A stretch of 64,000 nucleotides of DNA from Candidatus Kapaibacterium sp. (GCA_028284775.1 JANQRB010000044.1:65342-129341), one strand, 5' to 3'. Shown: positions 11,635 through 64,000, counted from the stretch's first letter. The notes: generated by a model not told the origin, from the letters alone. Numbers and translations: made by a program.

Positions 11635-11881
11635 AAGCCGCATTCTCCAACCGAGCCGACCCAGTCATGGCCCAATGAAAATCGCGAAACGCAGTATGTC
11701 CCAAGCAGTGCAAACGCAGACGCTACTAATATAGCGCTGCAGGGCGGAACTCCCGACACATTCCGCCGATTCCGATTTTCAAACCCGGTTTATTGTTTGG
11801 CGCGGCCTGTCCGCTGTGCAGATTCGGACTCTGCGGCCTGCGGTAGAAGAGAACATCGCCCTCCGCTCGCCGCCCTCCACC

Positions 11882-13831: not shown

Positions 13832-15220
13832 CTAATCAGTAATCAGAACGGGCAGAGATTTTGTTGTCTCTTCTGTTAACAGATAGCAGACGTAGACACC
13901 TGCTGGCAGTGAATGAGTTGCAAAAGTCGCAACGTGGTCACCCGCCTGCTGCTCGGCTGTTTGGAGGCCGAGTGTGCTGGTCCCGGTCATGCTTACGAGT
14001 CGCAAGCGAACCGTCTGCGGTTCCGGAAGACGATAGTGGATGTTAAGGACACTACGGGCGGGGTTTGGCGCCGCTGCCAGACCGTAATCGAGGCGCTCGA
14101 AGTCCGTCACGGCAGTGACCGAGGACGGCACGGCCTCGCGTATAAGTTGTTTAAGTCGGAAGTAAGTCGGATAGATCTTCTGATAGTCATTGAAGACGGA
14201 GAGGACGCCCGCGAGATTGCGCTGCAGATCGATCCAGGGGCTAAAGCCGAAGCGACCCTGCGAGGCGGCCTCCTGCAGAGCGCCGTCCTCAGCGTCGAGT
14301 CGCTCGCGCCACACGCCGACGCCATAGCGTGTTTGCGGAAGGGCCGGATCCAGGTAGCCAAAGCCGAAATAGGGCGAATAGACGATCGTGGCGTCGCCGG
14401 TCTGATCGCTCAGCATCGCGGCGATCGATTGTTCCGAAAGAATTCGCTGTCCGTCGAAACGACCGCCGTTCAGCAGCATCTGCAGAAAGTTCATGTACTC
14501 AGCGCCGGTTGACCAGACGCCGCCGTCGATCCGCGGGTTATCGGTGGGCCGCAAGGGACCTTCGTAGCGGCTGCGCTCCATGCCCAGCGGCCGGGCAAGC
14601 AGACGCTGGAAAAGCGAATCCCAGACCTGACCGCTGCCATAATCCCATCCGCTGGCCAGCTCGGCGATCCGCCCCGCTACATGCATCGAGTTGCTGCCGT
14701 AGCTGAAGAATCGACCGGGCCGGCCGATCAATTCCTCCGCCAAAACTTCCTCCACGCATTCAGCCAGGCTGATGTCGGCCCCGCTATCCTCCACACAATC
14801 GCTGGGACCGCCGACATTGCCGGGCAAGCCGGAGGTATGCGAAAACAACTGCCCTAAGGTTATGTCGGCGTGTTCACCCGCCAGCGCGGGAAAGTAGTCG
14901 CCGGCCCGGGCATCCAGCCTCAGCTTGCCTTCATCCACAAGGGCCATGATTACTGCGCCCGAGAGCCATTTACTGGCGGATGCGATCGGGATAAAACTGT
15001 CTTCATCGAAGCGTTTGCCCGGCAGAGTCAGGGACCGACGGTAAATCAGCTCACCATTCTGCTGCAGAAGCAGCGACAGTCCCCCGCCGGGGCCCGCCAG
15101 CACTTCCAGGGAGTCTTCCAGTAGCCGGTCAACGGCGCTGAAGTCATACATTGCAGCGCCGGGCCGTGCTACAAACACCGGCAATACCAGCAGCATAAGG
15201 CCTAATAACCTGGGGCTCAT
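13832..15220 (-). CDS. Serine hydrolase of the beta-lactamase/transpeptidase superfamily (class C-like) with T9SS C-terminal sorting domain
   Basis: Start reassigned to ATG 15220 (plus 'cat' 15218-15220), with TGGAGGA SD 8 nt upstream and signal peptide MSPRLLGLMLLVLPVFVARPGAA. SxxK motif in IASASKWLSGAVIMAL. C-terminus LAAAPNPARSVLNIHYRLPEPQTVRLRLVSMTG...GVYVCYLLTEE matches the T9SS CTD. Confidence 0.85.
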   Translation of the reverse strand: MSPRLLGLMLLVLPVFVARPGAAMYDFSAVDRLLEDSLEVLAGPGGGLSLLLQQNGELIYRRSLTLPGKRFDEDSFIPIASASKWLSGAVIMALVDEGKLRLDARAGDYFPALAGEHADITLGQLFSHTSGLPGNVGGPSDCVEDSGADISLAECVEEVLAEELIGRPGRFFSYGSNSMHVAGRIAELASGWDYGSGQVWDSLFQRLLARPLGMERSRYEGPLRPTDNPRIDGGVWSTGAEYMNFLQMLLNGGRFDGQRILSEQSIAAMLSDQTGDATIVYSPYFGFGYLDPALPQTRYGVGVWRERLDAEDGALQEAASQGRFGFSPWIDLQRNLAGVLSVFNDYQKIYPTYFRLKQLIREAVPSSVTAVTDFERLDYGLAAAPNPARSVLNIHYRLPEPQTVRLRLVSMTGTSTLGLQTAEQQAGDHVATFATHSLPAGVYVCYLLTEETTKSLPVLITD

Positions 15221-15519
15221 CGAACAGTCCTCCACAGCGTTGAAGCTAGAGTTTCGGTTTCTTGCACATCGACGGGACTCACTGTCGTGTGATCTGCTTT
15301 GCGGCAAACTACGATTTTCAGCGCAGCTCTGTTACAAGCGCCGCCCGGTTTATGTCGCCGCCGGACGCGCCTGCCGGTGGCGCCTGGCTTCAGCCATAGG
15401 AAATACCTCATTCGTAAATTCGACCGCAGGGATTTCAGACTTGTTATGCTGCTGCGTAATGGCCTATTTTTAAGACTACCACTACTGTAGTGATACGGCA
15501 CATTTGAGGAGATTCGACA

Positions 15520-18500
15520 ATGCCATGCTCCTTCCGGCACGTCAGGACGGCAATTGACGGCAATCCATGGCGCGCGCAGGTCGCAATTGTTCTATGCGTT
15601 ATTTGCCTTTGCGGCCTTCCTCTTTCCGCCCTGCCGCTTATCGACCCGCCTGTCCGAGAATCCGACCTGAGCGTTCAACGCTTTGGCACCAAAGACGGTC
15701 TGTCTAATAGCGACGTCCGGGCCATCATGCGGGATTCTAAAGGCTTCATGTGGTTTGCTACCGGTGACGGCCTCAACAAATTCGACGGTTATCAATTCAC
15801 AGAATACAAGCCGGAACGCCATGACTCGAATTCGATCTCGGAAAACAGTATTGCCGCACTTTGTGAAGCCAGCGACGGCCTGCTGTGGATCGGCACGTCC
15901 GACGGCAGGCTCAATTCTTTTGACCGCCTGACCGAAGATTTTCGGTGCTATGACATTGACGGCTCCACGATTCAGGGCACCGCCGTCAGCAGTATTATTA
16001 AAATAATCGAGGACCGGCAGCGGCAGCTCTGGCTGATCACCCAGGGCGGACAGATCTTCCGCTTTGATCCCGCGACCGCCGGATGCCTTGCGCTAAACGA
16101 GCGTTTTACGCAGGTCTACCCGGAAGCCCTCAGCCGGCGTTTTGCCCTCGACGTCATTGAAGACCGGAGCGGTGCGATTTGGCTCGGCACCGTGGTGGGG
16201 CTTGTCCGATATCTGCCCGAATCGGGACGGATAGATCAATTTCTGCCGCAGCCCAATCCCCTGAGTCGTGCACACAGTCATTTTGTTATGAAAATAATCT
16301 GCCAGGAAGATAGCAGTATCGCGCTCTGTACGCAGTCCAGCCTTTATACTTTCAACCCGGCTGACCAGAGTTTTACGACTCTCCTGCACATCAAACTACC
16401 GCAATTCGCCCCCGGCGCATACTGTTTTTCGACCTTCGCCCGTCAGGCCGACGGCAGTTACTGGCTCGGTACTTTCAACAACGGATTGCTGCATTTCTCG
16501 ACACATAACCAAGAAGTGATCAGGCATGAGCGCCACGCGCTGAACCCCAACAGCCTGAGCGGCAATTCCATCAGAGCGCTGGCGACGGACAACCTGGGTA
16601 CCCTCTGGTGCGGTACGCGCTTCGGACTCAACAAGTTATCCGCGGCATCGCAGCAATTCAGCGGCATTAACGGTGAGAGGGCCTACATTAAAGGAATGCG
16701 CCATAGCGTTGTGAGATCTCTGTATCACGATAGCGACGGCGAGCTCCTGATCGGTACGGACGGCGGGCTGTATTCTACTCGCGATAAGGGCGGAGACAGC
16801 ATTCGCCGGCGCGAGGAATTGGCGCCCAGCGACGGCGAGAACTATCCCCTGAATGCCATCTACAGGGATCGGCTGGGGTGGATGTGGTTCGGCTATACCG
16901 GGATAGAGCTGATCGCCCATCATCCGGCGACAGAGCAGGTTCGGCGCTACAGAAATCTCTCCGACACTTCCAGCCAGCTCATTGGCCACGTGTTCTGTTT
17001 CGAGGAAAATCGCCATGGAACACTGTATATCGGCACCGGCCGCGGTCTGCTGCGTTTCAATCGCGCGACGGAGACTTTCGATATTTACAAGCTTAACGAA
17101 ACGATGCATGCGGATCCGGTGCTGTATGTATTCGATATTCTGGAAGTCAGCGAGGGAATGCTGTGGCTCGCCACCAACGACGGCATCTGCGTTTTCGATC
17201 AGCGAAGCGCCAGCTTCGTAAAGCACTATGAGTTCGACGAGCGGGATTCGGGATCCTTGAGCTCCGATGAGGTATGGTGCCTGCACCGCGACAAGCGGGG
17301 ACGATTGTGGGTCTGTACCTTTGGCCAGGGTATCAATCTCTATGACCCGCAGAGCGATACTTTCCGCTGCTACAATGAAGCACAAGGGCTGCCGGGCGGC
17401 GCGGCGCTGGGTATGCTGGAGGACTCTCGCGCCAGGCTCTGGATAAGCACCACGAAGGGGTTGTCGCGCTTCGATCCGCAGACCGACGTCTTTCGCAATT
17501 TCGATGTCCATGATGGTCTGCAGAGCAATGAATTCTACTTCGGCGCCTATCACCGCAGCCGGCACACCGGCGAACTGTTCTTCGGCAGTGTTAACGGATT
17601 CAACCGTTTTCATCCCGACAGTATTCGCGATAACCCGCACCCGCCGCCGCTGGCAATCACTGGCCTGAAGGTATTCGGCCGCAGACTGCGCCCGGAGATG
17701 TTCAACGGCGACAGCGTACAACTCTCTTACCGTGAAAATTTTGTTTCATTCACTTTCGCGGCCCTCGATTACACCAACCCTGGCCAACATCAGTATGCCT
17801 ATATTCTCGAAGGCGTCGACCCCGAATGGGTTAACTGCGGCACGCGGCGTTATGCCGAATACACGAATCTGCCGGGCGGCAGCTACACGTTTCGCGTTAA
17901 GGGCTCGAACAACGACGGCGTCTGGAACGAGCCGGGAATCGCCATTAGCCTGACTATTACTCCGCCAATCTGGCAAACGCTCGCTTTTCGCATCGGCCTT
18001 GCCCTCCTCCTGATCGGCATTGCGGCATGCGGCATGCGCCTGCGGATCAAGGCCGTGCAGCGCAAGGCGGCACTGCAGCACAAGGTACTGGAGTCCGAAC
18101 TGGAGGCATTGCGTTTGCAGATGAATCCACACTTTATGTTTAACTCGCTGCACTCGATTCAAAACTATATTATTAAACACGATCAGGACAGGGCCTACAC
18201 CTACCTGGCGCGCTTCGCCAGCCTCATGCGCATGACGCTTGAAAACTCCGGTGAACAGGAGATTACGCTCGCGCGCGAACTCAGGACATTGGAACTGTAC
18301 CTGGAGCTCGAAACCCTGCGCTTTGAGCATAAAATCCGTTATGACATCGAGCTCGACCGTACGATCGACCGCGATCGGCTGATGGTGCCGCCCCTGCTCT
18401 TGCAGCCCTACGTCGAAAACGCAATCGTCCATGGTCTGCAGCCCAAACGCGGCCAGGGCGTGGTAAAAATCCGGGTGCGCCGGCGAGGCCGGCATATCGT

Positions 18501-18765
18501 CTGCACGGTAGAAGATGACGGCGCCGGCCGCGCCTACGCCCGCCGCCTGAAACAGCGCAATACCAACCGGCACCTGTCCATCGGGACGAGGGTGGCTCGA
18601 AAGCGTCTCGAACGTCTCAGCACTCAACATCAGCAGTCGATGCATGTCAGCGTCACCGATTTATACGATTTTCACGGTCAGGCCGCCGGCACCCGTGTCG
18701 ACATCACGCTTGCGGCAACGATACGTTCCGATGGCCACGACAAGGGTCGGTCTGTGCTTGCCTGA
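15520..18765 (+). CDS. Sensor histidine kinase, periplasmic two-component-regulator-propeller repeats + Y_Y_Y domain + TM + LytS/YehU-type His_kinase + HATPase_c (paralog 1 of 3)
   Basis: ATG 15520 with GAGGAG SD 9 nt upstream. N-terminal TM/signal, repeated ...IWIGTxxGLxxFD... propeller units, the Y_Y_Y signature YAYILEGVDPEWVNCGTRRYAEYTNLPGGSYTFRVKGSNNDGVW, a TM helix LAFRIGLALLLIGIAA, LytS-type H-box LQMNPHFMFNSLHSIQ, and ATPase region LLLQPYVENAIVHGL...VEDDGAG. Confidence 0.9.
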   Translation: MPCSFRHVRTAIDGNPWRAQVAIVLCVICLCGLPLSALPLIDPPVRESDLSVQRFGTKDGLSNSDVRAIMRDSKGFMWFATGDGLNKFDGYQFTEYKPERHDSNSISENSIAALCEASDGLLWIGTSDGRLNSFDRLTEDFRCYDIDGSTIQGTAVSSIIKIIEDRQRQLWLITQGGQIFRFDPATAGCLALNERFTQVYPEALSRRFALDVIEDRSGAIWLGTVVGLVRYLPESGRIDQFLPQPNPLSRAHSHFVMKIICQEDSSIALCTQSSLYTFNPADQSFTTLLHIKLPQFAPGAYCFSTFARQADGSYWLGTFNNGLLHFSTHNQEVIRHERHALNPNSLSGNSIRALATDNLGTLWCGTRFGLNKLSAASQQFSGINGERAYIKGMRHSVVRSLYHDSDGELLIGTDGGLYSTRDKGGDSIRRREELAPSDGENYPLNAIYRDRLGWMWFGYTGIELIAHHPATEQVRRYRNLSDTSSQLIGHVFCFEENRHGTLYIGTGRGLLRFNRATETFDIYKLNETMHADPVLYVFDILEVSEGMLWLATNDGICVFDQRSASFVKHYEFDERDSGSLSSDEVWCLHRDKRGRLWVCTFGQGINLYDPQSDTFRCYNEAQGLPGGAALGMLEDSRARLWISTTKGLSRFDPQTDVFRNFDVHDGLQSNEFYFGAYHRSRHTGELFFGSVNGFNRFHPDSIRDNPHPPPLAITGLKVFGRRLRPEMFNGDSVQLSYRENFVSFTFAALDYTNPGQHQYAYILEGVDPEWVNCGTRRYAEYTNLPGGSYTFRVKGSNNDGVWNEPGIAISLTITPPIWQTLAFRIGLALLLIGIAACGMRLRIKAVQRKAALQHKVLESELEALRLQMNPHFMFNSLHSIQNYIIKHDQDRAYTYLARFASLMRMTLENSGEQEITLARELRTLELYLELETLRFEHKIRYDIELDRTIDRDRLMVPPLLLQPYVENAIVHGLQPKRGQGVVKIRVRRRGRHIVCTVEDDGAGRAYARRLKQRNTNRHLSIGTRVARKRLERLSTQHQQSMHVSVTDLYDFHGQAAGTRVDITLAATIRSDGHDKGRSVLA

Positions 18766-18820
18766 CTTTGTTCCGATCACATCGCTTCGCTGTCTGGCCC
18801 GGACGATCGGAACACAGTCA
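18763..18820 (+). other. Long imperfect hairpin spanning the HK1 stop codon (16-bp arms TGACTTTGTTCCGATC / GATCGGAACACAGTCA, 26-nt loop), possible intercistronic terminator/attenuator
   Basis: The arms are reverse complements with one mismatch. No canonical U-run follows. Confidence 0.35.
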
Positions 18821-19143
18821 AAGCCACTCGGCTTTGTCGTCCTTTACATGATCGCATATTGTTAACTGACGAGCTGAAAGAAGACTCCGCCGGCATCGGA
18901 TTTTCTTCCGCGCGCATCGCAGTCGAACGCGGCTATCGCGCAGCGCGTTAAGCCGAGCCCTTAGATGCAGAAAGAAGCAGAATGATAAAACAATAGCCGC
19001 GGCGGCGACACCTCCTGTTTTCCAGAGGCCGGACAAAGGAAAATACGGCGCAAGCAATTCTTAACTGGAATTCATCTCGCATTTGGTCTATTTTTCGGCA
19101 CCACTGCTTTCGCGAAACTGTTCATTACTTGGAGATCTTCCGG

Positions 19144-22100
19144 ATGAAATCCGCTTTTCGTTCCACAACGCGGACTTGCACGCTCTTCCGGCACAGGCTA
19201 GCGACGATCTGGCGCAGCCTACTTGCCATCCTCTGTTGCGTCGCATCCGCAATGGCGCAGAACAATCCGCCAATCCGGGAGTCGCAACGCGACTTTCAGC
19301 ACTACGGCACGCGCGACGGGCTTTCCAACAGCGAGGTACGTGTGATTCTGCGGGACAGCATGGGTTTCATGTGGTTCGGCACCAGCGATGGTCTGAACAA
19401 ATTCGACGGATATGATTTCACGGTGTACAAACCCGACCGTCTTGACACGCACTCGATCGCGGGCAACAGCATCGACGCTCTTCACGAATCGTCCAACGGC
19501 ATACTATGGATCGGCACGTCCGAGGGCCGGCTCTGTTCCTTCGACCGGACAAGGGAAGTGTTTCGCAATTATGTAGTCGACTCGTCCGGGACAGGCGGCG
19601 CCTTCGGCAGCGGCATCACCAAAATTATCGAAGATCGCCATGGCAAACTCTGGTTGATCACTATGGCCGGTCGTCTCATTCATTTCGACCCGGTTGACGG
19701 AAACTGTACTGCCCGCAATGCGACTTTCGCGGATTTCAAAGCAGTCACCCTTTCGAACCGCTTAGTGTATGACGCGCTTGAAGACAGCACGGGCGCGCTC
19801 TGGCTTGGTACTTCGGCGGGTTTATTGCGCTATCAACCCGCCACCGGCAGCACACAACGATTCAAGCCGCCGCAAAATTCAAGGGTGGAGCCGCGCTATA
19901 ACGACGCAGCATACAGGCTGATGAAAATCCCCAACGGCAACATTGTAGCTGTCAACAACGTTTGCCTGTTCGAGTTCGACCTTAGCAGCGAATCGTTTAC
20001 GACCCTTCTGACGAGCGACTATGTCACAACGAAAAATTCCAACCAACACTTTACTGCCATCAGCTATCAGCCGGACGGCACCTACTGGATCGGAACCATC
20101 GGCGCGGGGTTGCTGCAGTTTACGCCAAGAAGTGACGAGCTGCTGCTACATCAGCATCACGAGCTTTTTCCCGGCAGCCTGAGCGGCAACTCGGTCCGCT
20201 CACTGTCGGTCGACGATAGCGGCATGCTGTGGTGTGGAACGCGCTTCGGCATCGATATGCTCGCCCTGACCTCGCGGCACATCACGAAGGTAGGCGGCGA
20301 ACGAGCCTTTACGCAAGGCCTGCGGAATCTCGTCGTGCGCTCGCTGCTTCACGACCGCAGACGGAATATCTGGATCGGGACGGACGCCGGCGCCTATGTC
20401 ATGCGAGATAGCGATGACGGTACAATCCGCGCGCGTCCTGATGTAAGCCCCCTGGGCGACACTAAGTATCCCTTGAATGCCTTATATGAAGACATTCACG
20501 GTTGGATCTGGTTCGGCTACAGCAGTCCGGAGCTCATTGTCTATCAGCCTGACTCCAGGCGCGTGAAACGCTACTCTTCGCTGTCCGTCAATTCCGGCAT
20601 CACCTTCGATTATGTGTATAGCTTCACGGAAAGCAGCGCGGGGGAGCTCTGGTTCGGCACGCGGAGAGGGCTGGTCATTTATGATCGCGACGCGGATCGT
20701 TTTGAAGCGTTCAGACGCGAAATGCAGAATGACAATCTCTTATACGTCTTCGACCTGCTCGAACTGGAGGATGGTAAATGGTGGCTTGCCACCAACGAAG
20801 GCATCTGGGTTTTTGATGCAAAAACAAGGAGTTATGTCCATCGCTATGAATTCAAGATCGGGGACAGCGGCGCGCTCAGCTCCAACGAAGTATGGTGTCT
20901 GCACCGCGACAGGCAGGACCGAATCTGGGTATGTACCTATGGACAGGGGATCAATCTTTACGATCCGCAAAGCGATTCCTTCCGTTGTTTTGGCGAGAGT
21001 GAAGGGCTGCCGAGCGGTGCCACGTTCGGTATGCTGGAAGACGGACAGGGCCGGTTCTGGCTTAGCACGACCAAAGGACTGTCACGATTCGATCCCGCCG
21101 GTGGTATTTTTCGCAACTTCGACGAACGCGACGGCCTGCAAAGCAATGAGTTTTACTTCGGCGCTTATCACCGCAGCAGGTACAGCGGAGAAATGTTTTT
21201 CGGCGGCGTTAAAGGGTTAAACCGCTTTTACCCGGACAGCATTCGCGATAACTCACAGCCGCCGCCGCTGGCGATCACGGGCTTGCAGGTTTTCGGTCAC
21301 ACACGGCGTCGCGAGCTGGTCGACGGAGACAGCCTGCGACTCTCGTACAGCGACAATTTTATCTCACTCACCTTCGCGGCGCTCGACTACAGCAACCCGG
21401 GCAAACAGCACTATGCTTATGTTCTGGAGGGCGTCGATCCCGATTGGGTTTATTGCGGCACACGGCGCTATGCCGCTTACACCGATCTGCCGGGTGGAAG
21501 CTATACCTTTCGTGTTAAAGGCTCGAATTGCGACGGCGTCTGGAACGAAGAGGGTATCGCCATTACGCTCATCATTACGCCGCCTTTCTGGAATACACTG
21601 CTCTTTCGCGCCGCCGTCGTGCTGTTGCTGATCGCCGGGGTTGCCGGCGGACTGCGAGTTCGTATCAGAGCGATTCAGCGCAAGGCGGAGCTGCGACGCA
21701 AAATGCTGGAGTCCGAGCTGGAAGCCCTGCGATTACAGATGAATCCGCATTTTATGTTTAACTCGCTGCATTCGATCCAGAATTTTATCATTAAACACGA
21801 CCAGGATACGGCCTATTCCTATCTGGCGCGTTTTGCATGCCTGATGCGTATGACGCTCGAAAATTCCGGCGCCAAGGAAATCACGCTGGCGCGCGAGCTG
21901 CAGACGCTGAAGCTGTATCTCGAACTTGAAACACTGCGTTTCGAGCATAGAATACGCTATGTCATCGACGTCGATAACTCGATCGACGTCGAACGACAAT
22001 TACTGCCGCCCCTGCTTTTGCAGCCTTACGTCGAAAACGCCATTGTCCACGGTCTGCAGCCCAAGTACGGCAAGGGGCTCATTACGGTCAGAATTCGCCG

Positions 22101-22383
22101 TCAGGCTCATCAGATCATCTGCTCGGTGGAAGATGACGGCGCAGGTCGCGCATTCGCACGCCGGGCGGTACAGAAAAACAATGCCAGGCACCTGTCGATC
22201 GGCATGAAAGTGGCACGCAAACGGCTGGAACGCCTCAACGCACAGTTCCAACAATCAATGGCGGTCCGGGTCACTGATTTGTACGATGCGCTCGGCAAGG
22301 CCGCCGGTACGCGTGTCGATATTACGCTGGCAGCTACCGCCTTTCACGAAAACCGGGATAATCGGGAGTCCATTCCAGCCTGA
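19144..22383 (+). CDS. Sensor histidine kinase, propeller + Y_Y_Y + TM + LytS-type His_kinase + HATPase_c (paralog 2 of 3)
   Basis: The ORF-track start 19129 is TTG. ATG at 19144 (MKSAFRS...) has GGAGA 8 nt upstream. Same architecture as HK1: Y_Y_Y YAYVLEGVDPDWVYCGTRRYAAYTDLPGGSYTFRVKGSNCDGVW; H-box LQMNPHFMFNSLHSIQNF. The kinase core is ~80% identical to HK1 by eye. Confidence 0.9.
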   Translation: MKSAFRSTTRTCTLFRHRLATIWRSLLAILCCVASAMAQNNPPIRESQRDFQHYGTRDGLSNSEVRVILRDSMGFMWFGTSDGLNKFDGYDFTVYKPDRLDTHSIAGNSIDALHESSNGILWIGTSEGRLCSFDRTREVFRNYVVDSSGTGGAFGSGITKIIEDRHGKLWLITMAGRLIHFDPVDGNCTARNATFADFKAVTLSNRLVYDALEDSTGALWLGTSAGLLRYQPATGSTQRFKPPQNSRVEPRYNDAAYRLMKIPNGNIVAVNNVCLFEFDLSSESFTTLLTSDYVTTKNSNQHFTAISYQPDGTYWIGTIGAGLLQFTPRSDELLLHQHHELFPGSLSGNSVRSLSVDDSGMLWCGTRFGIDMLALTSRHITKVGGERAFTQGLRNLVVRSLLHDRRRNIWIGTDAGAYVMRDSDDGTIRARPDVSPLGDTKYPLNALYEDIHGWIWFGYSSPELIVYQPDSRRVKRYSSLSVNSGITFDYVYSFTESSAGELWFGTRRGLVIYDRDADRFEAFRREMQNDNLLYVFDLLELEDGKWWLATNEGIWVFDAKTRSYVHRYEFKIGDSGALSSNEVWCLHRDRQDRIWVCTYGQGINLYDPQSDSFRCFGESEGLPSGATFGMLEDGQGRFWLSTTKGLSRFDPAGGIFRNFDERDGLQSNEFYFGAYHRSRYSGEMFFGGVKGLNRFYPDSIRDNSQPPPLAITGLQVFGHTRRRELVDGDSLRLSYSDNFISLTFAALDYSNPGKQHYAYVLEGVDPDWVYCGTRRYAAYTDLPGGSYTFRVKGSNCDGVWNEEGIAITLIITPPFWNTLLFRAAVVLLLIAGVAGGLRVRIRAIQRKAELRRKMLESELEALRLQMNPHFMFNSLHSIQNFIIKHDQDTAYSYLARFACLMRMTLENSGAKEITLARELQTLKLYLELETLRFEHRIRYVIDVDNSIDVERQLLPPLLLQPYVENAIVHGLQPKYGKGLITVRIRRQAHQIICSVEDDGAGRAFARRAVQKNNARHLSIGMKVARKRLERLNAQFQQSMAVRVTDLYDALGKAAGTRVDITLAATAFHENRDNRESIPA

Positions 22384-22474
22384 CATTTGCGGTATTCGCT
22401 TCCCCGCACACCGGCAGCCTCCCGGCGCTGCCGGCCGTAATGTACTGCCGCGGCCGACGTCGGTCGCCAAAATC

Positions 22475-22492
22475 AACAGCGTCGCTGTTTTT
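22475..22492 (+). terminator. Weak terminator-like hairpin (AACAGC-GTC-GCTGTT + TTT) downstream of HK2
   Basis: 6-bp stem, 3-nt loop, followed by tttta. Marginal stability; listed only as a possibility. Confidence 0.2.
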
Positions 22493-22683
22493 AGGGTGAT
22501 CTCATCGCTCCAGTCGATGAGTATCCGACCGAAGTGGAGAATCGGATGCTGGAAATCCACCATTGTCCCACAATGAATATTGAGCCTTCGGCCATTCTTC
22601 ATTGTATGGCATCGTCCTTGGACGTAATTTTTCCGTCAACCACTGGAACCTCCGACGCTGATCACAATCAGGAGAAGGACTCG

Positions 22684-25600
22684 ATGTCGGGAGCGCTACG
22701 TTTTTTCACTGCGTCCGGGGGGGCTCGTCCCTGGTCCGACTTTCTACGTATGTACTGCTTAGTCCTTGTATTTTTTTGTTGTTGCGCCCAGTCAGCGGCG
22801 CAGATTGCAGCCATTAGCACGAAGTCCGACCGGGACTTCCAACGTATCGGCACGGAGCATGGACTTTCCAACAGCTACGTTGAAGTAATGTTACAGGATA
22901 GCAAGGGATTCATGTGGTTCGGAACCAGCGACGGCCTTAACAAATATGACGGTTATGAGTTCACGGTCTACAAGCCGGACCGCAGCAATCCGCATTCGAT
23001 TACCGACAATACCGTCACTGCGCTGCTCGAAGCGTCAGACGGTTTATTGTGGATGGGTACGTCCGAAGGCAAACTGTGTTCATTTGACCGCCGAGATGAA
23101 AAGTTTACAACCTACTCAATCGAATCGACGCCGATCTTCGGCACCGCAATCAGCAGCATCACCGGCATTGTCGAAGATCAACACCGAAAGCTCTGGCTGA
23201 CAAACTATGCCAACAGGTTCTTCTGTTTTGATCCGGACAGCGGTGTCTTCAGCGAGCACAGCGCTATTTTCAGGGGCCCGCGCGGTGACGAGGATGTTTA
23301 CTTTAACGTCGAAAGCCTGCTGGCGGACGGCGGCGGCGTTTGGATCGGTACATCGAAGGGCCTGTTGCATTATCAGCCATACAGCGGCAGAGCAGACCAC
23401 TACCCGCAGCCATCCGATACGGATACCTCGCTGTACCATACCGAGGTAATAAGTATTCTCAAGGCCGCCGAAGGAAAATTTATCGTATTAACGAAAGTCG
23501 GCTTGTACAGCTTTGACCCCGCACTGGAAACTTTTACTCCGCTGCTCAGATGCGATCGCGAGCCGGATGCGCCACCTCTCGGCTTTTTTCATGTTTTGGC
23601 TCCCGGCAGCGACGGTAGCTATTGGATTGGTACAATCGCCCATGGTTTATATCAGTTTCTGCCGCAGTCAAATAAACTGATTCATCACGAACATCATCCG
23701 CTGTATCCCAACAGTTTGAGCAGCAATTCGATTTTTGCCCTCGAGGTCGACCGCTTTGGCACGCTGTGGGCCGGTACTCGTTTTGGTGTTAACAAGCTTT
23801 CCGTCTCAGCGAAGAATTTCAGAACAATCGGCGGCGAACGCGCCTTCACTCAAGGAATGCGCAATCGCGTCGTGCGCGCACTGTGCCACGATCGACGGGG
23901 CTACCTCTGGATTGGAACCGACGGCGGACCATACTATATTCACGATAGCGCGACGGAGATGGCTATCGGGCGTCCGAAAGCCGGCGCCCGCGCGTTTTAT
24001 GACAGTCCCGTTAACGCGATTTACGAAGATAGCTACGGCTGGATATGGATCGGATACTCCAACCTGCATCAGACGGCTTACCATCCGGACAAAGGTGAAA
24101 TCAGGCAGTATGCTTTTCTGTCGGATTCATGCCGGCAGGTTCTCGGCCCCATCTATTGCTTCGCGGAGGATCACGAAGGCCGATTATGGACCGGAACCCG
24201 CAAGGGATTGCGGCGTTTCGACAGGGATGCGGATCGATTCGAGGAATTCGGATACGGCATCCTGCAACTCCATAGAACATACTTTTATGTTTTTGACATT
24301 CTGGAAGTGGAAAACGGCATACTGTGGCTCGCCACTAACGAAGGGCTTTATGTCTTTAACACGCGAATAGGGCGCTACATCCGACGTTACACAATGGATG
24401 CGCAGGACAGCAGCTCGATCAGTTCCAATGAAACATGGTGTTTGCATCGCGATCGTCGGGGGCGTATCTGGGTAGGAACGTTCGGACAGGGAATTAATCT
24501 TTACGATCCCCAAAGCGATTCCTTTCGCAGCTTTAACGAAGCGGAAGGACTGCCCAGCGGCGCAACCTTCGGTATACTGGAAGATGATCGCGGACGACTG
24601 TGGATCAGTACCGCCAGAGGTCTTTCCCGCTTCGACCCTCGCAGCGGCATTTTTCGCAATTACGATGTACAGGATGGCCTGCAAAGCAATGCTTTCTACT
24701 TCGGCGCCTACCATCACAGTAAGTACAGCGGCGAAATGTTCTTCGGCGGCGAAAACGGTGTTAACCGCTTTCACCCCGACAGTGTGCGCTATAATCCGCA
24801 CGAGCCGCTGCTCGCGATAACCGAGCTCCAGGTATCAGACAGCACATGGCGCAGAGAAATGCTCGATGGCGACAGCCTGAATCTCTCGTATCGCGACAAT
24901 TTCATCACATTCACGTTTGCCGCGCTTGACTACAACAATCCCGGTAAACATCAATATCGATACATGCTCGAAGGCGTTGACGACAAGTGGGTGGAGTGCG
25001 GCACCCGTCGCTTTGCCGCTTATACCAAACTACCGGCCGGTGACTATACCTTCCGTTTGCAGGGTTCGAACAGCGACGGAGTTTGGAATCATCGCGGCAT
25101 CACCATTCCGGTGAGGATTGCGCCGCCATTCTGGAATACGCTGCTCTTTCGCAGCGGCGTCGCGCTGCTGCTGATTGCTCTGGTAGGCTGGGGGGCACAC
25201 CGGTGGACCAAAGCGGTACAGCGCAAAGCGGATCTTAAACGCCAGGTGCTGGAATCCGAGTTGGAAGCATTGCGTTTGCAGATGAATCCGCACTTCATGT
25301 TTAATTCGCTGCATTCGATTCAACACTTTATCATTAAACATGACCAGGACACGGCCTATACCTATCTGGCGCGTTTTGCCAGTCTGATGCGTATGACACT
25401 GGAAAACTCGCGCAAACAAGAAATATCGCTTGCGCGCGAGTTAATGACGCTGGAATTGTATCTCGAGCTCGAAACACTGCGCTTCGGACACAAGATACGA
25501 TATGTTATTGACCTTGATTGCACGATTGACAGCGAGCAGCTGATGCTGCCGCCGATGCTTCTGCAGCCATTTGTAGAAAATGCCATTGTTCACGGTCTGC

Positions 25601-25899
25601 AACCGAAAATCGGCCCCTGTCTTCTCACAATTGCCGTTCGCCGGCAGGGCGACCAGATTGTCTGCACGGTGGAAGACAACGGCGTCGGCCGCACCTTTGC
25701 CCGCCGGCAGAAACAGAAAAACCGCAACCGGCATCTGTCGATCGGAATGAAGGTCGCGCGCAAGCGACTCGAACGCCTCACCGCCCAAATGCAACAATCC
25801 ATGAGTATACATGTCACCGATCTGTTCGACGCGCATGGTCAGGCCTCCGGCACCCGCGTCGACATCACCCTTGCGGCGAGTGAGATCTCCCGTGTTTAA
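22684..25899 (+). CDS. Sensor histidine kinase, propeller + Y_Y_Y + TM + LytS-type His_kinase + HATPase_c (paralog 3 of 3)
   Basis: Start reassigned to ATG 22684 (MSGALRFF...) with AGGAGAAGG SD 6 nt upstream. Signal/TM MYCLVLVFFCCCAQSAAQ. Y_Y_Y YRYMLEGVDDKWVECGTRRFAAYTKLPAGDYTFRLQGSNSDGVW; H-box LQMNPHFMFNSLHSIQHF. Confidence 0.9.
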   Translation: MSGALRFFTASGGARPWSDFLRMYCLVLVFFCCCAQSAAQIAAISTKSDRDFQRIGTEHGLSNSYVEVMLQDSKGFMWFGTSDGLNKYDGYEFTVYKPDRSNPHSITDNTVTALLEASDGLLWMGTSEGKLCSFDRRDEKFTTYSIESTPIFGTAISSITGIVEDQHRKLWLTNYANRFFCFDPDSGVFSEHSAIFRGPRGDEDVYFNVESLLADGGGVWIGTSKGLLHYQPYSGRADHYPQPSDTDTSLYHTEVISILKAAEGKFIVLTKVGLYSFDPALETFTPLLRCDREPDAPPLGFFHVLAPGSDGSYWIGTIAHGLYQFLPQSNKLIHHEHHPLYPNSLSSNSIFALEVDRFGTLWAGTRFGVNKLSVSAKNFRTIGGERAFTQGMRNRVVRALCHDRRGYLWIGTDGGPYYIHDSATEMAIGRPKAGARAFYDSPVNAIYEDSYGWIWIGYSNLHQTAYHPDKGEIRQYAFLSDSCRQVLGPIYCFAEDHEGRLWTGTRKGLRRFDRDADRFEEFGYGILQLHRTYFYVFDILEVENGILWLATNEGLYVFNTRIGRYIRRYTMDAQDSSSISSNETWCLHRDRRGRIWVGTFGQGINLYDPQSDSFRSFNEAEGLPSGATFGILEDDRGRLWISTARGLSRFDPRSGIFRNYDVQDGLQSNAFYFGAYHHSKYSGEMFFGGENGVNRFHPDSVRYNPHEPLLAITELQVSDSTWRREMLDGDSLNLSYRDNFITFTFAALDYNNPGKHQYRYMLEGVDDKWVECGTRRFAAYTKLPAGDYTFRLQGSNSDGVWNHRGITIPVRIAPPFWNTLLFRSGVALLLIALVGWGAHRWTKAVQRKADLKRQVLESELEALRLQMNPHFMFNSLHSIQHFIIKHDQDTAYTYLARFASLMRMTLENSRKQEISLARELMTLELYLELETLRFGHKIRYVIDLDCTIDSEQLMLPPMLLQPFVENAIVHGLQPKIGPCLLTIAVRRQGDQIVCTVEDNGVGRTFARRQKQKNRNRHLSIGMKVARKRLERLTAQMQQSMSIHVTDLFDAHGQASGTRVDITLAASEISRV

Positions 25900-25940: not shown

Positions 25941-27101
25941 TTAGCCGCCGACCAGATAAGAGAGCTGCGCCGTCAGAACAGCAAGATAGTTACCGGCGGC
26001 GTAGCCGACCATGGCCATGAGAATGGCTGCCGGCACCAGCGCCTGACGATGATGAGCGGCGACGATCGGTGCGGAAGCAATTCCGCCGATGTTGGCGGCT
26101 GAAGCAATTGCGGCGCTGTGAAGATCCACGCGCAGCAGCCGGGCGCCGAGCAGGCAGACAGCGCCGTGAATGAAGATCATCAGAAACGAGGCGAGCAGAA
26201 AGATCGGCGCATCGTCGAGCCCCTGCAGGGAGGCGCGAGCCCCCATTCCGGCCAGAAAGAGATATACCAGGGCGAGCCCGATTGCCCGCGAGCCGGGGAT
26301 ACGCCGGGCCGGACTGAAGGAGAGGGCCAGGGCAAAGGTCGTCAGCAGCAGCGTACGCCAAGTTCCGGTACTGACAACCGGTGGCAGCTCCGGCAGCAGC
26401 GGCGCCAGCTCGCGTGCCGCCCAGGTCACGGCGGCGACAATCGTTAACAGATAGAGCACATGATGGATCTGCAGCGGTTCTTCGCTTGTGTTGCCTGTTT
26501 CCAGGGCAGCCGCCTCCAGTTGCCGGATACGCGCCGGGTCCACGCCGGCCCATGCGTTGAAACGCTCCGCCAGTGCACGCGAAGAGAGCAAGAGCGGCAA
26601 CCAGACAATGTACACGATGTTATCGGCCAGAATCGCAACCCCCAGGTCATCGGGCTTCAGGCCTAAGCCGGCGGCGGTAGCGGCCATATTGGCTGTGCCG
26701 CCGATCCAGGAGCCGGCCAGGCTGCCGATCAGTTTCCAGCCATCGCCGGCGAGCCAGGCGCTACACAAGGCATAGGCCAGTGTGCCGCCCAGCACTATGC
26801 CAAAGCTGCCGATCAGCATCACGCCAATGCCGCGGCCCATCGTTCGCAGGGCGGCGGGCAAGTCGACCGAAATAAGCATCAGCACCAGGAATGCCGGGAG
26901 CACAAAGTCCGACAAAGCATCATAAGCCGCCGACTTTGCCGGCAGAACGCCGACGTTATTCAGCACAACCGGCAAGGCATAGATCCAGAGCAAAGGAGGA
27001 AAATACCGGAAGCCGCGCCAGCCGGTACTGCGATCCAGATAAAAGAAAAGCATGCACACGGCTGACAGAATGGCGAAAACAGCGGCCGGCGAGCTAATCA
27101 T
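25941..27101 (-). CDS. Polytopic inner-membrane protein, DUF819-like (putative)
   Basis: Start placed at ATG 27101 (MISSPAAVFAILSAVCMLFFYL, first TM helix), because the 71 upstream residues of the track ORF are non-hydrophobic and would overlap the S41 gene. At least 10 hydrophobic segments. Family call is from overall resemblance only. Confidence 0.55.
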   Translation of the reverse strand: MISSPAAVFAILSAVCMLFFYLDRSTGWRGFRYFPPLLWIYALPVVLNNVGVLPAKSAAYDALSDFVLPAFLVLMLISVDLPAALRTMGRGIGVMLIGSFGIVLGGTLAYALCSAWLAGDGWKLIGSLAGSWIGGTANMAATAAGLGLKPDDLGVAILADNIVYIVWLPLLLSSRALAERFNAWAGVDPARIRQLEAAALETGNTSEEPLQIHHVLYLLTIVAAVTWAARELAPLLPELPPVVSTGTWRTLLLTTFALALSFSPARRIPGSRAIGLALVYLFLAGMGARASLQGLDDAPIFLLASFLMIFIHGAVCLLGARLLRVDLHSAAIASAANIGGIASAPIVAAHHRQALVPAAILMAMVGYAAGNYLAVLTAQLSYLVGG

Positions 27102-27192
27102 ATCGAAGCGTAGTAAATAGATGGAAGAAGGAGTCGAATGCAAGATAGCAGTGGCCACGGGGATATGAAACTTTAATGCGACCGGATTCCCT

Positions 27193-28698
27193 TCACCAGT
27201 TCCGATCGGCTTCCCACAGCAAAGGATCTTCATCCGGCCGCCCTGGCTTGCTCTCCGGCACGAGACGGTCGACGGGAATGCCATTGCCTTCGATGCAGCG
27301 CCCATTGCGGTCATAGGTCAGTGCGGTACTGACTGTCAGGCGCCAGCCCGGCAGGAGGCGAATCGTGCGCACCCGACCACTGCCGCCGCCGCTCGGCGTC
27401 CCCAACACTTCCACATGATCGAGCCCCTGTAAGCCAAGCAGCGCGTCTTCGGCGGCCGAATAGCTGAGGGCGTCGGTCAGAAAACGGACCGGACCCATCC
27501 AGCGTTGCCGCTCCGGGGCAGGATGCGCGTAAATCGGCGCGGGTGCGCTAAGTCCACCTCCCGGCAGGCTGGTACGCAGACTGCCCATCAGCCCCGGCCG
27601 TCGCAGAAATCGGTCGCGCACTCGCAGGGCCAGCGGAAAGTTGCCGCCCGGGTTGCCGCGCAGATCGACCACCAGGCCGGGCGCTCCGGCAAAAGCTGAG
27701 ATGGCATCGTCAAGCGATTCCTCGATACCCTGACCGGCAAGGAAAGCCTTGAGCTTAAGATAACCGGCGCCCGACGGCAGACGACGCCAGGTCAGCGGCG
27801 GCAACCACTGTCGCTCGCGGGGCGGCACACGTTCTTCCCAACTCACGCGCCGACCCGATGGTGAGACTGCGCTAAAACGCCGTAAGGTATCGACCGGCGC
27901 TGCGAGCAAGCGTTTGCCGGCGACATAGGGACGGGAATGGGCTGTTGCTGCCGTACGCCGCCAGCAGCCGCGCAGATCTTCGTCCAGCAGTAGATAGCCG
28001 GGCCGGACACCCGCCTCCCAGGCCGTGCTGTCCGGCGGCAACGAGGTGAAAAGCGCTCGATCGCCATCGATCCGCAGGCCATAGGGCAATTCACCCCAGG
28101 CGGGGACAGGACGCAGCCAGGTGTGCGCGTCTTCCAGCACAGCCAGCCACTCCTGGATCGCGGCGACAGGTTCGGCCGCCGCGCGTACCCGCGGCACATG
28201 CTCGGCGCAGATTCTCTCCCAGTCCAGCGCACGCAGCTCGAAAGAAGGGTAGCTGAGAGCAACCTCGCGAACGATAACTTCGATCGCCTCATCGAGATTG
28301 CCGCAGTCGCCGACCTCAAATACTCCATCCGCCAAACGATAAAGGCTGCGCAGATAACTGAATGTCTCAATGACCGCCGCCGCATCGGCTCCATTCGTGA
28401 TAAGCAGCTGTCGTCCGCGATCCAGATACAGGTAGGCTGCGTCGGGAGCGGGATGGATGAGTCCTGCGATCGCCGGATTGCAATGCGCCGGACCTATCAG
28501 CCATCGCGCACCCTCGCCTGGATCGTGCTCGCTGATGACAAGCGGCGCGCCAAGTTCGGTTTCGAGAGCGGTCTGATTTTCGCGGATCAGGGCGGGGAGG
28601 TCGCGCAGGATGCGGGCTTCAGACGCGGAAATATCCTTGAATTGCGTGGGAACAACGACAGTCACGGTGCTTGTCCCTGTAAATGGAAGTCCACTCAT
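27193..28698 (-). CDS. S41-family (C-terminal processing/tail-specific-like) serine peptidase
   Basis: DLRGNPGGN motif and SYSAAE catalytic-serine motif. The track start 28719 is GTG; the first ATG is at 28698 (MSGLPFTG). Start uncertain (no SD). Confidence 0.75.
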   Translation of the reverse strand: MSGLPFTGTSTVTVVVPTQFKDISASEARILRDLPALIRENQTALETELGAPLVISEHDPGEGARWLIGPAHCNPAIAGLIHPAPDAAYLYLDRGRQLLITNGADAAAVIETFSYLRSLYRLADGVFEVGDCGNLDEAIEVIVREVALSYPSFELRALDWERICAEHVPRVRAAAEPVAAIQEWLAVLEDAHTWLRPVPAWGELPYGLRIDGDRALFTSLPPDSTAWEAGVRPGYLLLDEDLRGCWRRTAATAHSRPYVAGKRLLAAPVDTLRRFSAVSPSGRRVSWEERVPPRERQWLPPLTWRRLPSGAGYLKLKAFLAGQGIEESLDDAISAFAGAPGLVVDLRGNPGGNFPLALRVRDRFLRRPGLMGSLRTSLPGGGLSAPAPIYAHPAPERQRWMGPVRFLTDALSYSAAEDALLGLQGLDHVEVLGTPSGGGSGRVRTIRLLPGWRLTVSTALTYDRNGRCIEGNGIPVDRLVPESKPGRPDEDPLLWEADRNW

Positions 28699-58401: not shown

Positions 58402-60063
58402 ATGAAAAAGCCGCTGATAGTTGCACTTGACGACGACCCGCAGGTGCTCAGAGCGATCCGACGCGATCTACGCAATGAATACCGCGAAGAGTATCGCATA
58501 CTTTCCACGACCTCGGCGCGGGAAGCATTGGAGTCCTTGAAAGAGTTGAAGCTGCGTGGCGAGAAAATCGCGCTTTTCATTTCCGACCAGCGGATGCCAG
58601 AAATGGAGGGCGTCGACTATCTGGAGCGGGCCAAGGAGATTTTCCCCGAGGCGCGGCGCGTGCTCCTGACGGCATATTCCGATACGGAAGCGGCCATTAA
58701 AGCGATCAATGACGTGCAGCTCGACTACTATCTGATGAAACCCTGGGATCCGCCGGAAGAAAAATTGTACCCTGTGCTGAACGACCTGCTCGACGAATGG
58801 CAGGCGAGCTACCGGCCGGACTTCGAAGGCATCAAAATCGTAGGCTATCAGTGGTCGCCGCGCTCGCATGGCATTAAGGACTTTCTGGCGGGCAACCTGA
58901 TTCCTTACCTTTGGCTGGATATCGAATCGAATGAGGAAGCACGCCGCTTGATCGACGCTGCCGGCGTGGCGCATAAAGAGTTGCCGGCGGTGTTTTTCGA
59001 GGACGGCAGCCACATGGAGAATCCCACAGCAACCCGGATCGCCGCAAAAATTGGCATGAATGCCCACGCTTCCGACACGATGTACGACGTCGTGATTGTT
59101 GGCGCCGGCCCGGCGGGTCTGGCTGCGGCCGTTTATGGCGCATCGGAAGGCCTCAAAACGCTGCTGGTGGAAAAGCGGGCGCCGGGCGGGCAGGCGGGCA
59201 CAAGTTCGCGCATCGAAAATTACCTCGGCTTCCCGAAAGGTCTGAGCGGCTCGCAGCTCACGCAACGCGCCATCACCCAGGCCACTCGACTGGGGGCGGA
59301 GTTCCTGCTGCCGCAGGAAGTCAAAAGCATCAGCCTGCGCGATAAATACAAAATCATTACACTCGCCGACGGTGCTGAGATCCACGCGCTCAGCGTCATC
59401 ACGACTACAGGCGTGGACTACCGCAAGCTCGCGACCAAGGGCATTGCTGATTTCACCGGGGCGGGCGTTTATTACGGCGCGGCGACGACGGAGGCGGCAG
59501 CCTGCCGCGATAAGGACGTCTATATCGTCGGCGGCGGCAACTCGGCCGGACAGGCTGCCATGTATCTCTCGACATTCGCCAGCAATGTCTACATTCTTAT
59601 CCGCCGCGACTCGTTGAAACACTCGATGTCGCAGTACCTTATAGACCAGATTGCCGGCACAGCCAATATCGTGCTGCAGCCGCATACGGTGGTAGAAGAA
59701 GCTATCGGCAACGGCAACCTGAGCGCCCTGGTGCTGAAAGACCTGAATAGCAATGAATGCCGCAGGGTAGAGGCGGGCTCGCTCTTCATCTTTATCGGCG
59801 CACGCCCCTATACCGAGTGGCTGGAAGCCGATATCATCAAGAATCAGCGCGGCTTTATCGAAACTGGACGCGACCTGATCCGGCATCCGGACTTTAAGAA
59901 AGTCTGGAAACTCGATCGCGAGCCTTTCCTGCTGGAATCGAGCTCGCCCGGCCTCTTTGCCGCCGGCGACGTGCGCGCCGGCGCCATGAACCGCGTCGCT
60001 TCGGCCGTCGGCGAAGGATCGATGGCCATCAAATTTGTCCACGAGTACCTGGCTCAGCTCTGA
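58402..60063 (+). CDS. Response-regulator receiver (REC) domain fused to a thioredoxin-reductase-fold FAD/NAD(P)H flavoprotein that lacks the CxxC redox centre
   Basis: ATG 58402 with AAAGGA SD. REC has LDDD (res 9-12), phosphoacceptor Asp in FISDQRMPEMEG, T in VLLTAY and K in YYLMKPW. The C-terminal ~330 aa have TrxB-like Rossmann motifs (VVIVGAGPAGLAAAVY ; YIVGGGNSAGQAAMYL). TrxB 'CATC' aligns to AATTEAAAC, so there is no CxxC. Confidence 0.85.
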   Translation: MKKPLIVALDDDPQVLRAIRRDLRNEYREEYRILSTTSAREALESLKELKLRGEKIALFISDQRMPEMEGVDYLERAKEIFPEARRVLLTAYSDTEAAIKAINDVQLDYYLMKPWDPPEEKLYPVLNDLLDEWQASYRPDFEGIKIVGYQWSPRSHGIKDFLAGNLIPYLWLDIESNEEARRLIDAAGVAHKELPAVFFEDGSHMENPTATRIAAKIGMNAHASDTMYDVVIVGAGPAGLAAAVYGASEGLKTLLVEKRAPGGQAGTSSRIENYLGFPKGLSGSQLTQRAITQATRLGAEFLLPQEVKSISLRDKYKIITLADGAEIHALSVITTTGVDYRKLATKGIADFTGAGVYYGAATTEAAACRDKDVYIVGGGNSAGQAAMYLSTFASNVYILIRRDSLKHSMSQYLIDQIAGTANIVLQPHTVVEEAIGNGNLSALVLKDLNSNECRRVEAGSLFIFIGARPYTEWLEADIIKNQRGFIETGRDLIRHPDFKKVWKLDREPFLLESSSPGLFAAGDVRAGAMNRVASAVGEGSMAIKFVHEYLAQL

Positions 60064-63615: not shown

Positions 63616-64000
63616 CTACGATTTCGGTCGCACCTGCGGTTTGAGCATATTCTTTGGGTCGAGTACGGTATCCAGCTCTTCCTTGGAAAGCAGCTTCTGC
63701 TCCACCACCAGATCGTAGATGCCGCGCTTGCTCTCCAGCGCTTCCTTCGCCAGCTTGCTGCAGACTTCATAGCCCAGCAGCGGACTGAGTGCCGTTACGA
63801 TACCGATACTGTTCTGCACATAACGCCAGCAGACGTCTTCATTGGCCGTAATGCCGTCGATACAGCGATGTTTCAAGGTAACGATGCCGTTTTTAAGCAT
63901 CTGGATCGACTCCAGGATGCAGGCGGCGATAACAGGCTCCATCACATTCAGTTCTAACTGACCGGCCTCCGCCGCCATAGAAACCGTGGTATTGTTACCC
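63616..64000 (-). CDS. Class-II fumarase / aspartate ammonia-lyase family enzyme, C-terminal ~128 aa (5' end beyond window)
   Basis: AAEAGQLELNVMEPVIA...VTALSPLLGYEVCSKLAKEAL...LSKEELDTVLDPKNM matches the conserved C-terminal region of the FumC/AspA lyase family. The reading frame continues to the window edge. Confidence 0.8.
   Translation of the reverse strand, partial: GNNTTVSMAAEAGQLELNVMEPVIAACILESIQMLKNGIVTLKHRCIDGITANEDVCWRYVQNSIGIVTALSPLLGYEVCSKLAKEALESKRGIYDLVVEQKLLSKEELDTVLDPKNMLKPQVRPKS

Follow-up and report, generated by a model that had tools for sequence, protein, structure and literature searches.

The DNA studied here is a 64,000-nucleotide (nt) stretch of a Candidatus Kapaibacterium sp. 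genome (GCA_028284775.1, JANQRB010000044.1:65342-129341), referred to below as the window. Its subject is a set of three paralogous sensor histidine kinase genes, HK1, HK2 and HK3, that lie back to back on the plus strand. HK1 (15520..18765, +; 1081 amino acids (aa)) was delimited from its open reading frame (ORF), Pfam matches, alignment-based domain limits and hydropathy. HK2 (19144..22383, +; 1079 aa) and HK3 (22684..25899, +; 1071 aa) have the same architecture and are counted from ATG codons at 19144 and 22684. Their mechanical ORFs open earlier, with a TTG at 19129 (19129-22383) and a GTG at 22534 (22534-25899), respectively, and in both cases a hydrophobic anchor comes directly after the in-frame ATG. 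At 1081, 1079 and 1071 aa, the products agree in length with the public gene calls on the same DNA (P0001-P0003). With ATG starts, the gaps between the genes are 378 bp (HK1-HK2) and 300 bp (HK2-HK3).

Each protein is predicted to join a BT4663-type sensor (two beta-propellers and a Y_Y_Y domain) through a transmembrane (TM) segment to a LytS/YehU-type dimerisation and histidine-phosphotransfer (DHp) domain and an ATPase (CA) domain. The approximate layout of HK1 (all +) runs from an N-terminal anchor (residues 16-45) through the double-propeller sensor (nt 15661-17640), Y_Y_Y (nt 17641-17961), the TM segment (nt 17962-18048) and DHp/His_kinase (nt 18049-18381) to CA/HATPase (nt 18382-18720), and the chains end ~15-25 residues past the ATPase domain. 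Two strongly hydrophobic segments per protein (~residues 16-45 and 815-845) enclose a periplasmic domain of ~770 residues, and between this anchor and the TM helix lie the Reg_prop double propeller (Pfam E 5e-41 to 2e-48 across HK1-HK3) and Y_Y_Y (55-62 bits, E 5e-17 to 8e-15), as in BT4663-type sensors. The BT4663 sensor structure (PDB 4A2L) matches HK1 residues 53-821 with E 1.3e-92, covering residues 32-788 of its 795-residue chain. The proteins have two hydrophobic segments rather than a multi-pass sensor, and Pfam found no 5TM-5TMR_LYT domain in them.

The kinase core was assigned to His_kinase PF06580 (75-77 bits against a cut-off of 25.2; E about 1e-21). Its phospho-accepting His sits in an NPHF motif, within QMNPHFMFNSL as expected for a PF06580 DHp domain, and the motif QMNPHFMFNSLHSIQ was found in HK1, HK2 and HK3. 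HATPase_c scored 21-23 bits in the three proteins, under the Pfam cut-off of 26.4, and most homologs of the same architecture are likewise without a recorded HATPase_c match. The GHKL ATPase signatures (E966-N967, D999-x-G1001-x-G1003 and S1020-x-G1022) are present, and residues 867-1004 align to PDB 6SWJ ('Histidine kinase'; E 2e-15). Together with H871, these signature residues are invariant in nine family members, namely the trio and six distant homologs. Pfam gave no match of HK1-HK3 to HisKA, Response_reg or HTH_AraC/HTH_18. An earlier annotation generated by a model from the nucleotides (the sequence-only reading) had described three same-strand paralogs with these gaps and one shared architecture; the ATG starts bear out the first point, and Pfam and hydropathy agree with the second, HATPase_c being weak.

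Aligning the 120 nt before each kinase start brought out a conserved element, ATTTTT followed closely by ACCACT. It reads ATTTTT-N6-ACCACT upstream of HK1 (15466..15483, +; ending 36 nt before the start) and HK3 (22627..22644, +; ending 39 nt before the ATG), and ATTTTT-N4-ACCACT upstream of HK2 (19090..19105, +; ending 38 nt before the ATG). The pattern ATTTTT-N3-6-ACCACT matched exactly three times in the window and not at all in 100 shuffles, a count that shows specificity and is not an independent test because the pattern was derived from the same sequences. In ~1.5 Mb of foreign loci it gave two stray matches, and it was not found upstream of foreign homologs. In HK3 the element falls within the extended GTG ORF, which supports the later ATG start at 22684; the ATG at 19144 is supported by the element as well. 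The array repeats with a period of 3.5-3.6 kb that holds promoter and kinase only, i.e. the duplicated unit lacks a regulator gene. The -7 promoter element of Bacteroidota is TAnnTTTG, to which the T-rich box is loosely similar. We infer that the element may be a separate but similar putative promoter or leader for each copy, which would imply co-regulation. A scan for sigma-70 promoters and terminators returned no more matches than shuffled sequence did, such a scan being uninformative for promoters of the Bacteroidota type.

Age of the triplication and selection on the copies

Pairwise figures were taken from a codon-aware alignment, and the ratio of nonsynonymous to synonymous substitution rates (dN/dS) was estimated by the Nei-Gojobori method, domain by domain. 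Amino-acid identity is lowest in the propeller region (49.5-52%), in its N-terminal half (43-48%) more so than in its C-terminal half (55-56%), and it amounts to 64-75% in Y_Y_Y, 79-84% in DHp, 72-73% in the ATPase (CA) domain and 57-60% over the whole protein. Divergence of the sensor is concentrated in a stretch of ~150 aa, 150-300 residues into it (27-43% identity), while identity is 56-78% in the first 100 residues of the sensor and in the last blades of the second propeller; the copies have thus diverged most within the N-terminal propeller. The identities that had been estimated by eye (kinase ~80%, propeller ~45-55%) proved accurate, as did the statement that conservation is lower in the sensor than in the kinase core (49.5-52% in the propeller against 79-84% in DHp). 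Uniform identity across domains, named beforehand as an outcome that would speak against sensor diversification, was not observed (49.5-84% by domain).

The age that had been assigned to the duplication did not stand. Synonymous divergence (dS) is 1.8-3.2 in the propeller, 1.3-2.7 in DHp and 1.1-1.6 in the ATPase domain, and the lowest value among these and the Y_Y_Y estimates is 0.76 (Y_Y_Y, HK1-HK2). Identity of the copies at 4-fold degenerate sites is 44-45%, where base composition alone would predict 29-32%; this corresponds to about one substitution per site. Whole-gene nucleotide identity is 64-65%. With dS near saturation (1.1 to more than 3 in the large domains) and 4-fold identity near the composition level, the triplication is old, not recent. 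The upstream element has kept its distance from the start over the time in which synonymous sites became saturated, which points to selection on it.

All domains of the trio are under purifying selection. By domain, the dN/dS ratio amounts to 0.03-0.09 (DHp), 0.12-0.18 (ATPase), 0.13-0.21 (Y_Y_Y) and 0.13-0.22 (propeller); it spans 0.03-0.23 across the large domains and reaches 0.36-0.56 in the TM segment, which has 29 codons. All copies have therefore been kept under purifying selection, and their catalytic motifs are intact. Constraint on the kinase core (dN/dS 0.03-0.18) lends indirect support to the autophosphorylation and phosphotransfer activity predicted for the three proteins.

The lower conservation of the sensor had been read as diversification, and we compared the identity gradient with that of 24 full-length foreign homologs of the same architecture. 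Mean pairwise identity among these homologs is 22% in the propeller, 30% in Y_Y_Y, 38% in the ATPase domain and 42% in DHp. In near-orthologs that have diverged to a similar extent, the gradient is as steep or steeper (L078 against L045: propeller 60%, DHp 92%). As unrelated family members show the same order of domains, the gradient is best regarded as ordinary rate heterogeneity of the family, not as diversifying selection, and the propeller dN/dS (0.13-0.22) gives no sign of the latter. A gradient of identity between sensor and kinase is, by itself, no sign of recent duplication or of diversifying selection.

These results bear directly on the explanation that the sequence-only reading had favoured, in which the triplication is recent, the sensor is under diversifying selection and nucleotide repeats create a hotspot for recombination and copy-number change. 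The resemblance on which it drew is real in part: the kinase segments, compared in register in blocks of 300 nt, share 74-80% of their nucleotides, and conservation is clearly lower in the sensor than in the kinase core. The uninterrupted identity is short, with longest exact matches between copies of 20, 23 and 19 nt and 1, 4 and 0 shared 20-mers per pair. Runs of 19-23 nt are at or under the minimal homology usually cited for RecA-dependent recombination, and 75-80% DNA identity alone does not make a recombination hotspot. A hint of exchange exists between HK2 and HK3, where 4-fold identity is 0.65 (n=48) in TM+DHp (21700-22050 / 25240-25590) against 0.44 gene-wide; this may be the trace of an old, partial gene conversion, and it is marginal after correction for twelve comparisons. 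With synonymous sites near saturation in every large domain, dN/dS under 0.25 in sensor and kinase domains (at most 0.56 in the short TM segment), the same gradient in unrelated relatives and an independently assembled 29-kb Logan short-read contig (SRR20820731) that extends across HK1 and HK2 into the first part of HK3 and has 0 mismatches relative to the window, we regard a recent origin and a hotspot as very improbable.

The same data speak to whether the array could be a mis-assembled repeat or a set of pseudogenes decaying after loss of their regulator. HATPase_c scores below its cut-off and a regulator is missing, as such an explanation would predict. The copies differ at 35% of their nucleotides, which excludes collapse or mis-joining of repeats as a concern for the assembly. 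Three frames are intact over ~3.2 kb each, dN/dS remains at 0.03-0.23 in the large domains, and the catalytic His, the N box and the G boxes are invariant. An artefact or decay therefore has a negligible chance of being the right explanation.

With regard to origin, HK1-HK3 are 55-58% identical to one another, whereas no other protein of the 5.8 billion searched exceeds 34% identity to them over most of the length. The protein search, which included JGI data, left the range between 58% and 34% empty. All window proteins that were looked up form singleton clusters at 90% identity and occur only in one NCBI contig and in SRR20820731. Since the three kinases are their own nearest relatives and fall in singleton clusters, the triplication arose within a poorly sampled lineage.

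Absence of an adjacent regulator and the probable partner

To place the array among its relatives, 27 foreign kinases of the same architecture in 25 loci (L003-L080) were compared, 26 of which could be assessed. A LytTR regulator lies at most 300 bp away in 21/26, mostly 0-90 bp downstream on the same strand, and the ORF directly downstream was Response_reg + LytTR in all ten cases tested with Pfam, so that LytTR is, as the sequence-only reading had assumed, the usual adjacent partner. The remainder comprise one kinase with a receiver behind it that is truncated at the end of the contig, one whose regulator is 4.3 kb away (L008), one not assessable, and three without a regulator within 10 kb (Chitinophaga sp. 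RAB17, Chitinophaga ginsengisoli and Runella salmonicolor). Orphans thus exist in this family but form a minority of about one in eight.

In the present locus the corresponding place is taken by a convergent gene for a DUF819 membrane protein (25941..27314, -; PF05684, E 2e-77), which begins 41 nt past the HK3 stop, where homologous loci have the LytTR regulator. On the other side, divergent from HK1, lies a serine hydrolase gene (13832..15307, -; PF00144, E 1.6e-31) with a beta-lactamase fold and a C-terminal type IX secretion system (T9SS) sorting domain (Por_Secre_tail), which has no demonstrated membership in the kinase system. No LytTR domain was found by Pfam in window ORFs of at least 180 aa (shadow ORFs inside longer assigned genes excluded), nor in the 97 stop-to-stop ORFs of at least 60 aa that cover the unassigned DNA of the window. 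A family-specific LytTR profile, built from ten partner regulators of the foreign homologous kinases, also found nothing in a six-frame search of the window (best E 0.39), and the receiver half of that profile matched only a Response_reg + Pyr_redox_2 fusion at 58402..60063 (+). This thioredoxin-reductase-like protein of 553 aa carries the sole receiver domain in the window, 32 kb from HK3, and is an unlikely partner of the trio.

The search was extended on both sides of the window. To the left, 2.6 kb hold a DUF5122 protein of 850 aa and the opening 104 residues of a response regulator (L002 2-337, window -2614 to -2279, -; Response_reg E 4.5e-25), the latter cut by the contig end. In a homology search the closest relatives of this fragment are named OmpR/PhoP family, not LytTR, and it was rejected as the missing LytTR partner. 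To the right, 9.4 kb contain a cNMP-binding fumarase, a DUF1684 protein, a sigma factor and T9SS cargo proteins, with no receiver or LytTR domain among them. From window position -2615 to +73410, i.e. 18 kb upstream of HK1 and 47 kb downstream of HK3, there is no LytTR gene, no adjacent cognate regulator of the LytTR or AraC type and no suitable receiver; the orphan status is real within this inspected region. The flanks named in the sequence-only reading (serine hydrolase, DUF819 permease) match the Pfam assignments, its statement that no LytTR regulator lies nearby also holds for another 2.6 kb on the left of the window and 9.4 kb on the right, and the adjacent LytTR gene just outside the window that it had named as contrary evidence was not found in those flanks.

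One could suppose that the partner belongs to another class and is encoded in the neighbourhood, as the OmpR-type regulator 2.3 kb left of the window or as the Response_reg + Pyr_redox_2 fusion, which are the only receiver domains within reach. A LytTR partner is not obligatory, as PF06580 kinases also pair with AraC-type regulators, e.g. Bacillus subtilis YesM/YesN. Both receivers are separated from the array by 18 kb and 32 kb, respectively, and by many unrelated genes. In the homologs, all full-length partners found next to the kinase are LytTR proteins, and the OmpR/PhoP class is not known to pair with PF06580 kinases. We consider a neighbouring partner of this kind a marginal explanation.

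It is somewhat easier to imagine that the kinases are not true orphans and that each has a private LytTR or AraC-type regulator farther along the contig or elsewhere. The inspected region amounts to ~76 kb around the array, the homolog in L008 has its LytTR regulator 4.3 kb away, and unlinked kinase-regulator pairs are common in bacteria. To weigh this against a common partner, we used the 21 DHp-helix positions that vary most across the family. Pairs of the trio are identical at 15-17/21 of these positions (71-81%), and all three agree at 14. Co-resident paralogs that have their own adjacent regulators agree at 6/21 (L041, 29%) or 9/21 (L005/L015, from the same metagenome-assembled genome (MAG), 43%), and near-orthologs from different genomes at 18-20/21. 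This is suggestive of kinases that still recognise one partner, resembling orthologs rather than insulated paralogs. As there is, in addition, no LytTR gene within the 18 kb and 47 kb that flank the array, private partners seem an unlikely arrangement, though one with clearly better prospects than a neighbouring receiver of another class.

Our preferred explanation, which we hold to be likely, is that HK1-HK3 are an old, lineage-specific tandem triplication of a TM sensor histidine kinase from a widespread Bacteroidota family, co-regulated and signalling to an unlinked, probably shared LytTR regulator. In this scheme, which is drawn from homologs, a ligand in the periplasm (probably part of a glycan) would bind the propeller entry faces of the kinase dimer, and movement of the Y_Y_Y domain and TM segment would switch autophosphorylation on the NPHF His. 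The phosphate would then be passed to a regulator encoded elsewhere, most likely of LytTR type, and the three co-regulated kinases may sense related but different ligands. A single shared regulator of the LytTR type is the most likely recipient because the partner-recognition helices are nearly identical; a shared distal regulator is in this respect plausible, and co-regulation with one unlinked regulator fits the upstream motif and the DHp data, which do not amount to proof.

Several observations weigh against this explanation. The promoter role of the upstream element derives from its position and its loose likeness to a -7 box, and HATPase_c is below threshold in the trio. The partner regulator was not found within the ~76 kb read of the 174.7-kb source contig. 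No SusC/SusD or carbohydrate-active enzyme genes adjoin the array; SusC/SusD and glycoside hydrolase families were also not found among the scanned window ORFs. Finally, the paralog pairs used as controls are older than the trio; the high DHp identity of the trio is thereby confounded by age and does not amount to proof of a shared partner.

A stronger version would make the array a convergent hub, in which co-regulated sensors with their own promoters, diverged propellers and near-identical helices would all pass phosphate to a single unlinked LytTR regulator. Such a many-to-one phosphorelay would be of a kind that has yet to be described in this family of Bacteroidota sensors. We put this forward tentatively, as a possibility that falls short of an even chance. 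If true, the compact locus would be well suited to studying the integration of several periplasmic signals by one regulator in Bacteroidota, and it would reveal how paralogous kinases retain or escape cross-talk once they are duplicated.

Other features of the window were recorded separately. A regulator with TPR (MalT-like) and GerE/LuxR helix-turn-helix domains and without a receiver (9799-11643, -; 614 aa) lies 4 kb upstream of the array, and no evidence ties it to the kinases. An S-adenosylmethionine (SAM) riboswitch (RF00162, 13255-13377, -; 71 bits, E 1.3e-14) stands just upstream of a pyridoxal-phosphate-dependent enzyme of Cys/Met metabolism (11882-13072, -), which is an ordinary arrangement. 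Four window proteins have T9SS sorting domains, which, like the nearest homologs, point to Bacteroidota or a close relative. The fumarase mentioned above (63619-63999, -, continuing into L083 7936-9795) is a class II enzyme of 619 aa with an unusual fusion of cNMP_binding, Lyase_1 and FumaraseC_C, of which the window holds the C-terminus only. A cytoplasmic histidine kinase (44424-45812, +) has an N-terminal cNMP_binding domain with HisKA and HATPase_c; it clusters under a 57-aa representative on 374 contigs, probably an artefact of fragment clustering. Two publicly called genes, 35247-38201 (+, 984 aa) and 1320-2909 (+, 529 aa), have no Pfam match at E <=0.001.

Comparison with known systems

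The closest counterparts of the trio are the Bacteroidota Reg_prop/Y_Y_Y/PF06580 kinases (e.g. MBK9292212.1 = P0006), which have the same domain order in ~1000-1170 aa and the same conserved NPHF motif, N box and G1 box. They have an adjacent LytTR gene in 21/26 cases, and the trio in 0/3. These proteins are annotated as 'histidine kinase', and our literature search found no experimental characterisation of them and no paper combining Reg_prop or Y_Y_Y with LytTR kinases. The locus is a lineage-specific tandem expansion of a known and widespread sensor kinase family, mildly unusual only in its absent adjacent regulator.

The same sensor, with two seven-bladed propellers and Y_Y_Y, is found in Bacteroides thetaiotaomicron BT4663 (PDB 4A2L/4A2M). 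BT4663 is dimeric, and sensors of its type bind oligosaccharide (a disaccharide in BT4663) on the propeller entry faces, with the Y_Y_Y domains as spacers and dimerisation elements (PMC5121618) and a scissor-like movement for signal transmission (PMC5121618, PMC8534201). BT4663 differs from the trio in that it joins HisKA, HATPase, receiver and AraC DNA-binding domains in one chain, whereas the trio has the PF06580 core only, and in that it adjoins a polysaccharide-utilisation locus under its control, which the trio does not. HK1-HK3 are consequently not hybrid two-component systems of the Bacteroides type, as they have neither fused HisKA, receiver and AraC domains nor adjoining SusC/SusD genes. 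The locus mainly shows the BT4663-type sensor module reused with a LytS-type kinase output. In our protein search the Reg_prop sensor module was also coupled to SpoIIE, GGDEF, HisKA and hybrid kinases, and in BguR a Reg_prop-type sensor is coupled to a GerE DNA-binding domain (bioRxiv 10.64898/2026.01.10.698779).

In terms of output, the trio shares its DHp family and expected partner class with LytS/LytR, BtsS/BtsR (YehU/YehT) and YpdA/YpdB. The classical kinases LytS, BtsS and YpdA have a multi-pass 5TM sensor and are encoded beside their regulators, whereas the trio senses through a large periplasmic propeller and has no adjacent regulator. The circuit proposed for the trio has counterparts among many-kinase-to-one-regulator networks, in which KinA-E act on Spo0F in Bacillus and LuxN/LuxQ/CqsS on LuxU in Vibrio. 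The logic would be the same, with varied inputs, similar outputs and a receiver encoded elsewhere, but convergence is here a proposal, and kinase family, sensor fold and phylum differ.

As for the tandem arrangement, a direct tandem of kinases with this architecture was not seen in the 25 foreign loci; the only one with two such kinases, L041, encodes a regulator behind each kinase. Tandem arrays of the sensor module as such are common, 10/79 foreign loci having two to four Reg_prop sensors. A Ginsengibacter MAG has three back-to-back HisKA kinases followed by a receiver-PAS-kinase gene (L033 9917-20070), and an Ignavibacteriae MAG has three SpoIIE phosphatases in tandem (L067 8039-18436). Tandem expansion of the Reg_prop/Y_Y_Y sensor module thus recurs across phyla, and the present locus shows that LytS-type Reg_prop kinase genes, like other Reg_prop sensors, expand in tandem. 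A LytS-type triple array without any regulator was not seen among the 79 foreign loci, and our locus joins two features, tandem array and orphan status, each of which recurs elsewhere. Like the trio, the Ginsengibacter and Ignavibacteriae arrays consist of same-strand paralogs of ~1100 aa, set 16-93 bp apart; their output domains are HisKA/HATPase or SpoIIE, in contrast to PF06580 in the trio.

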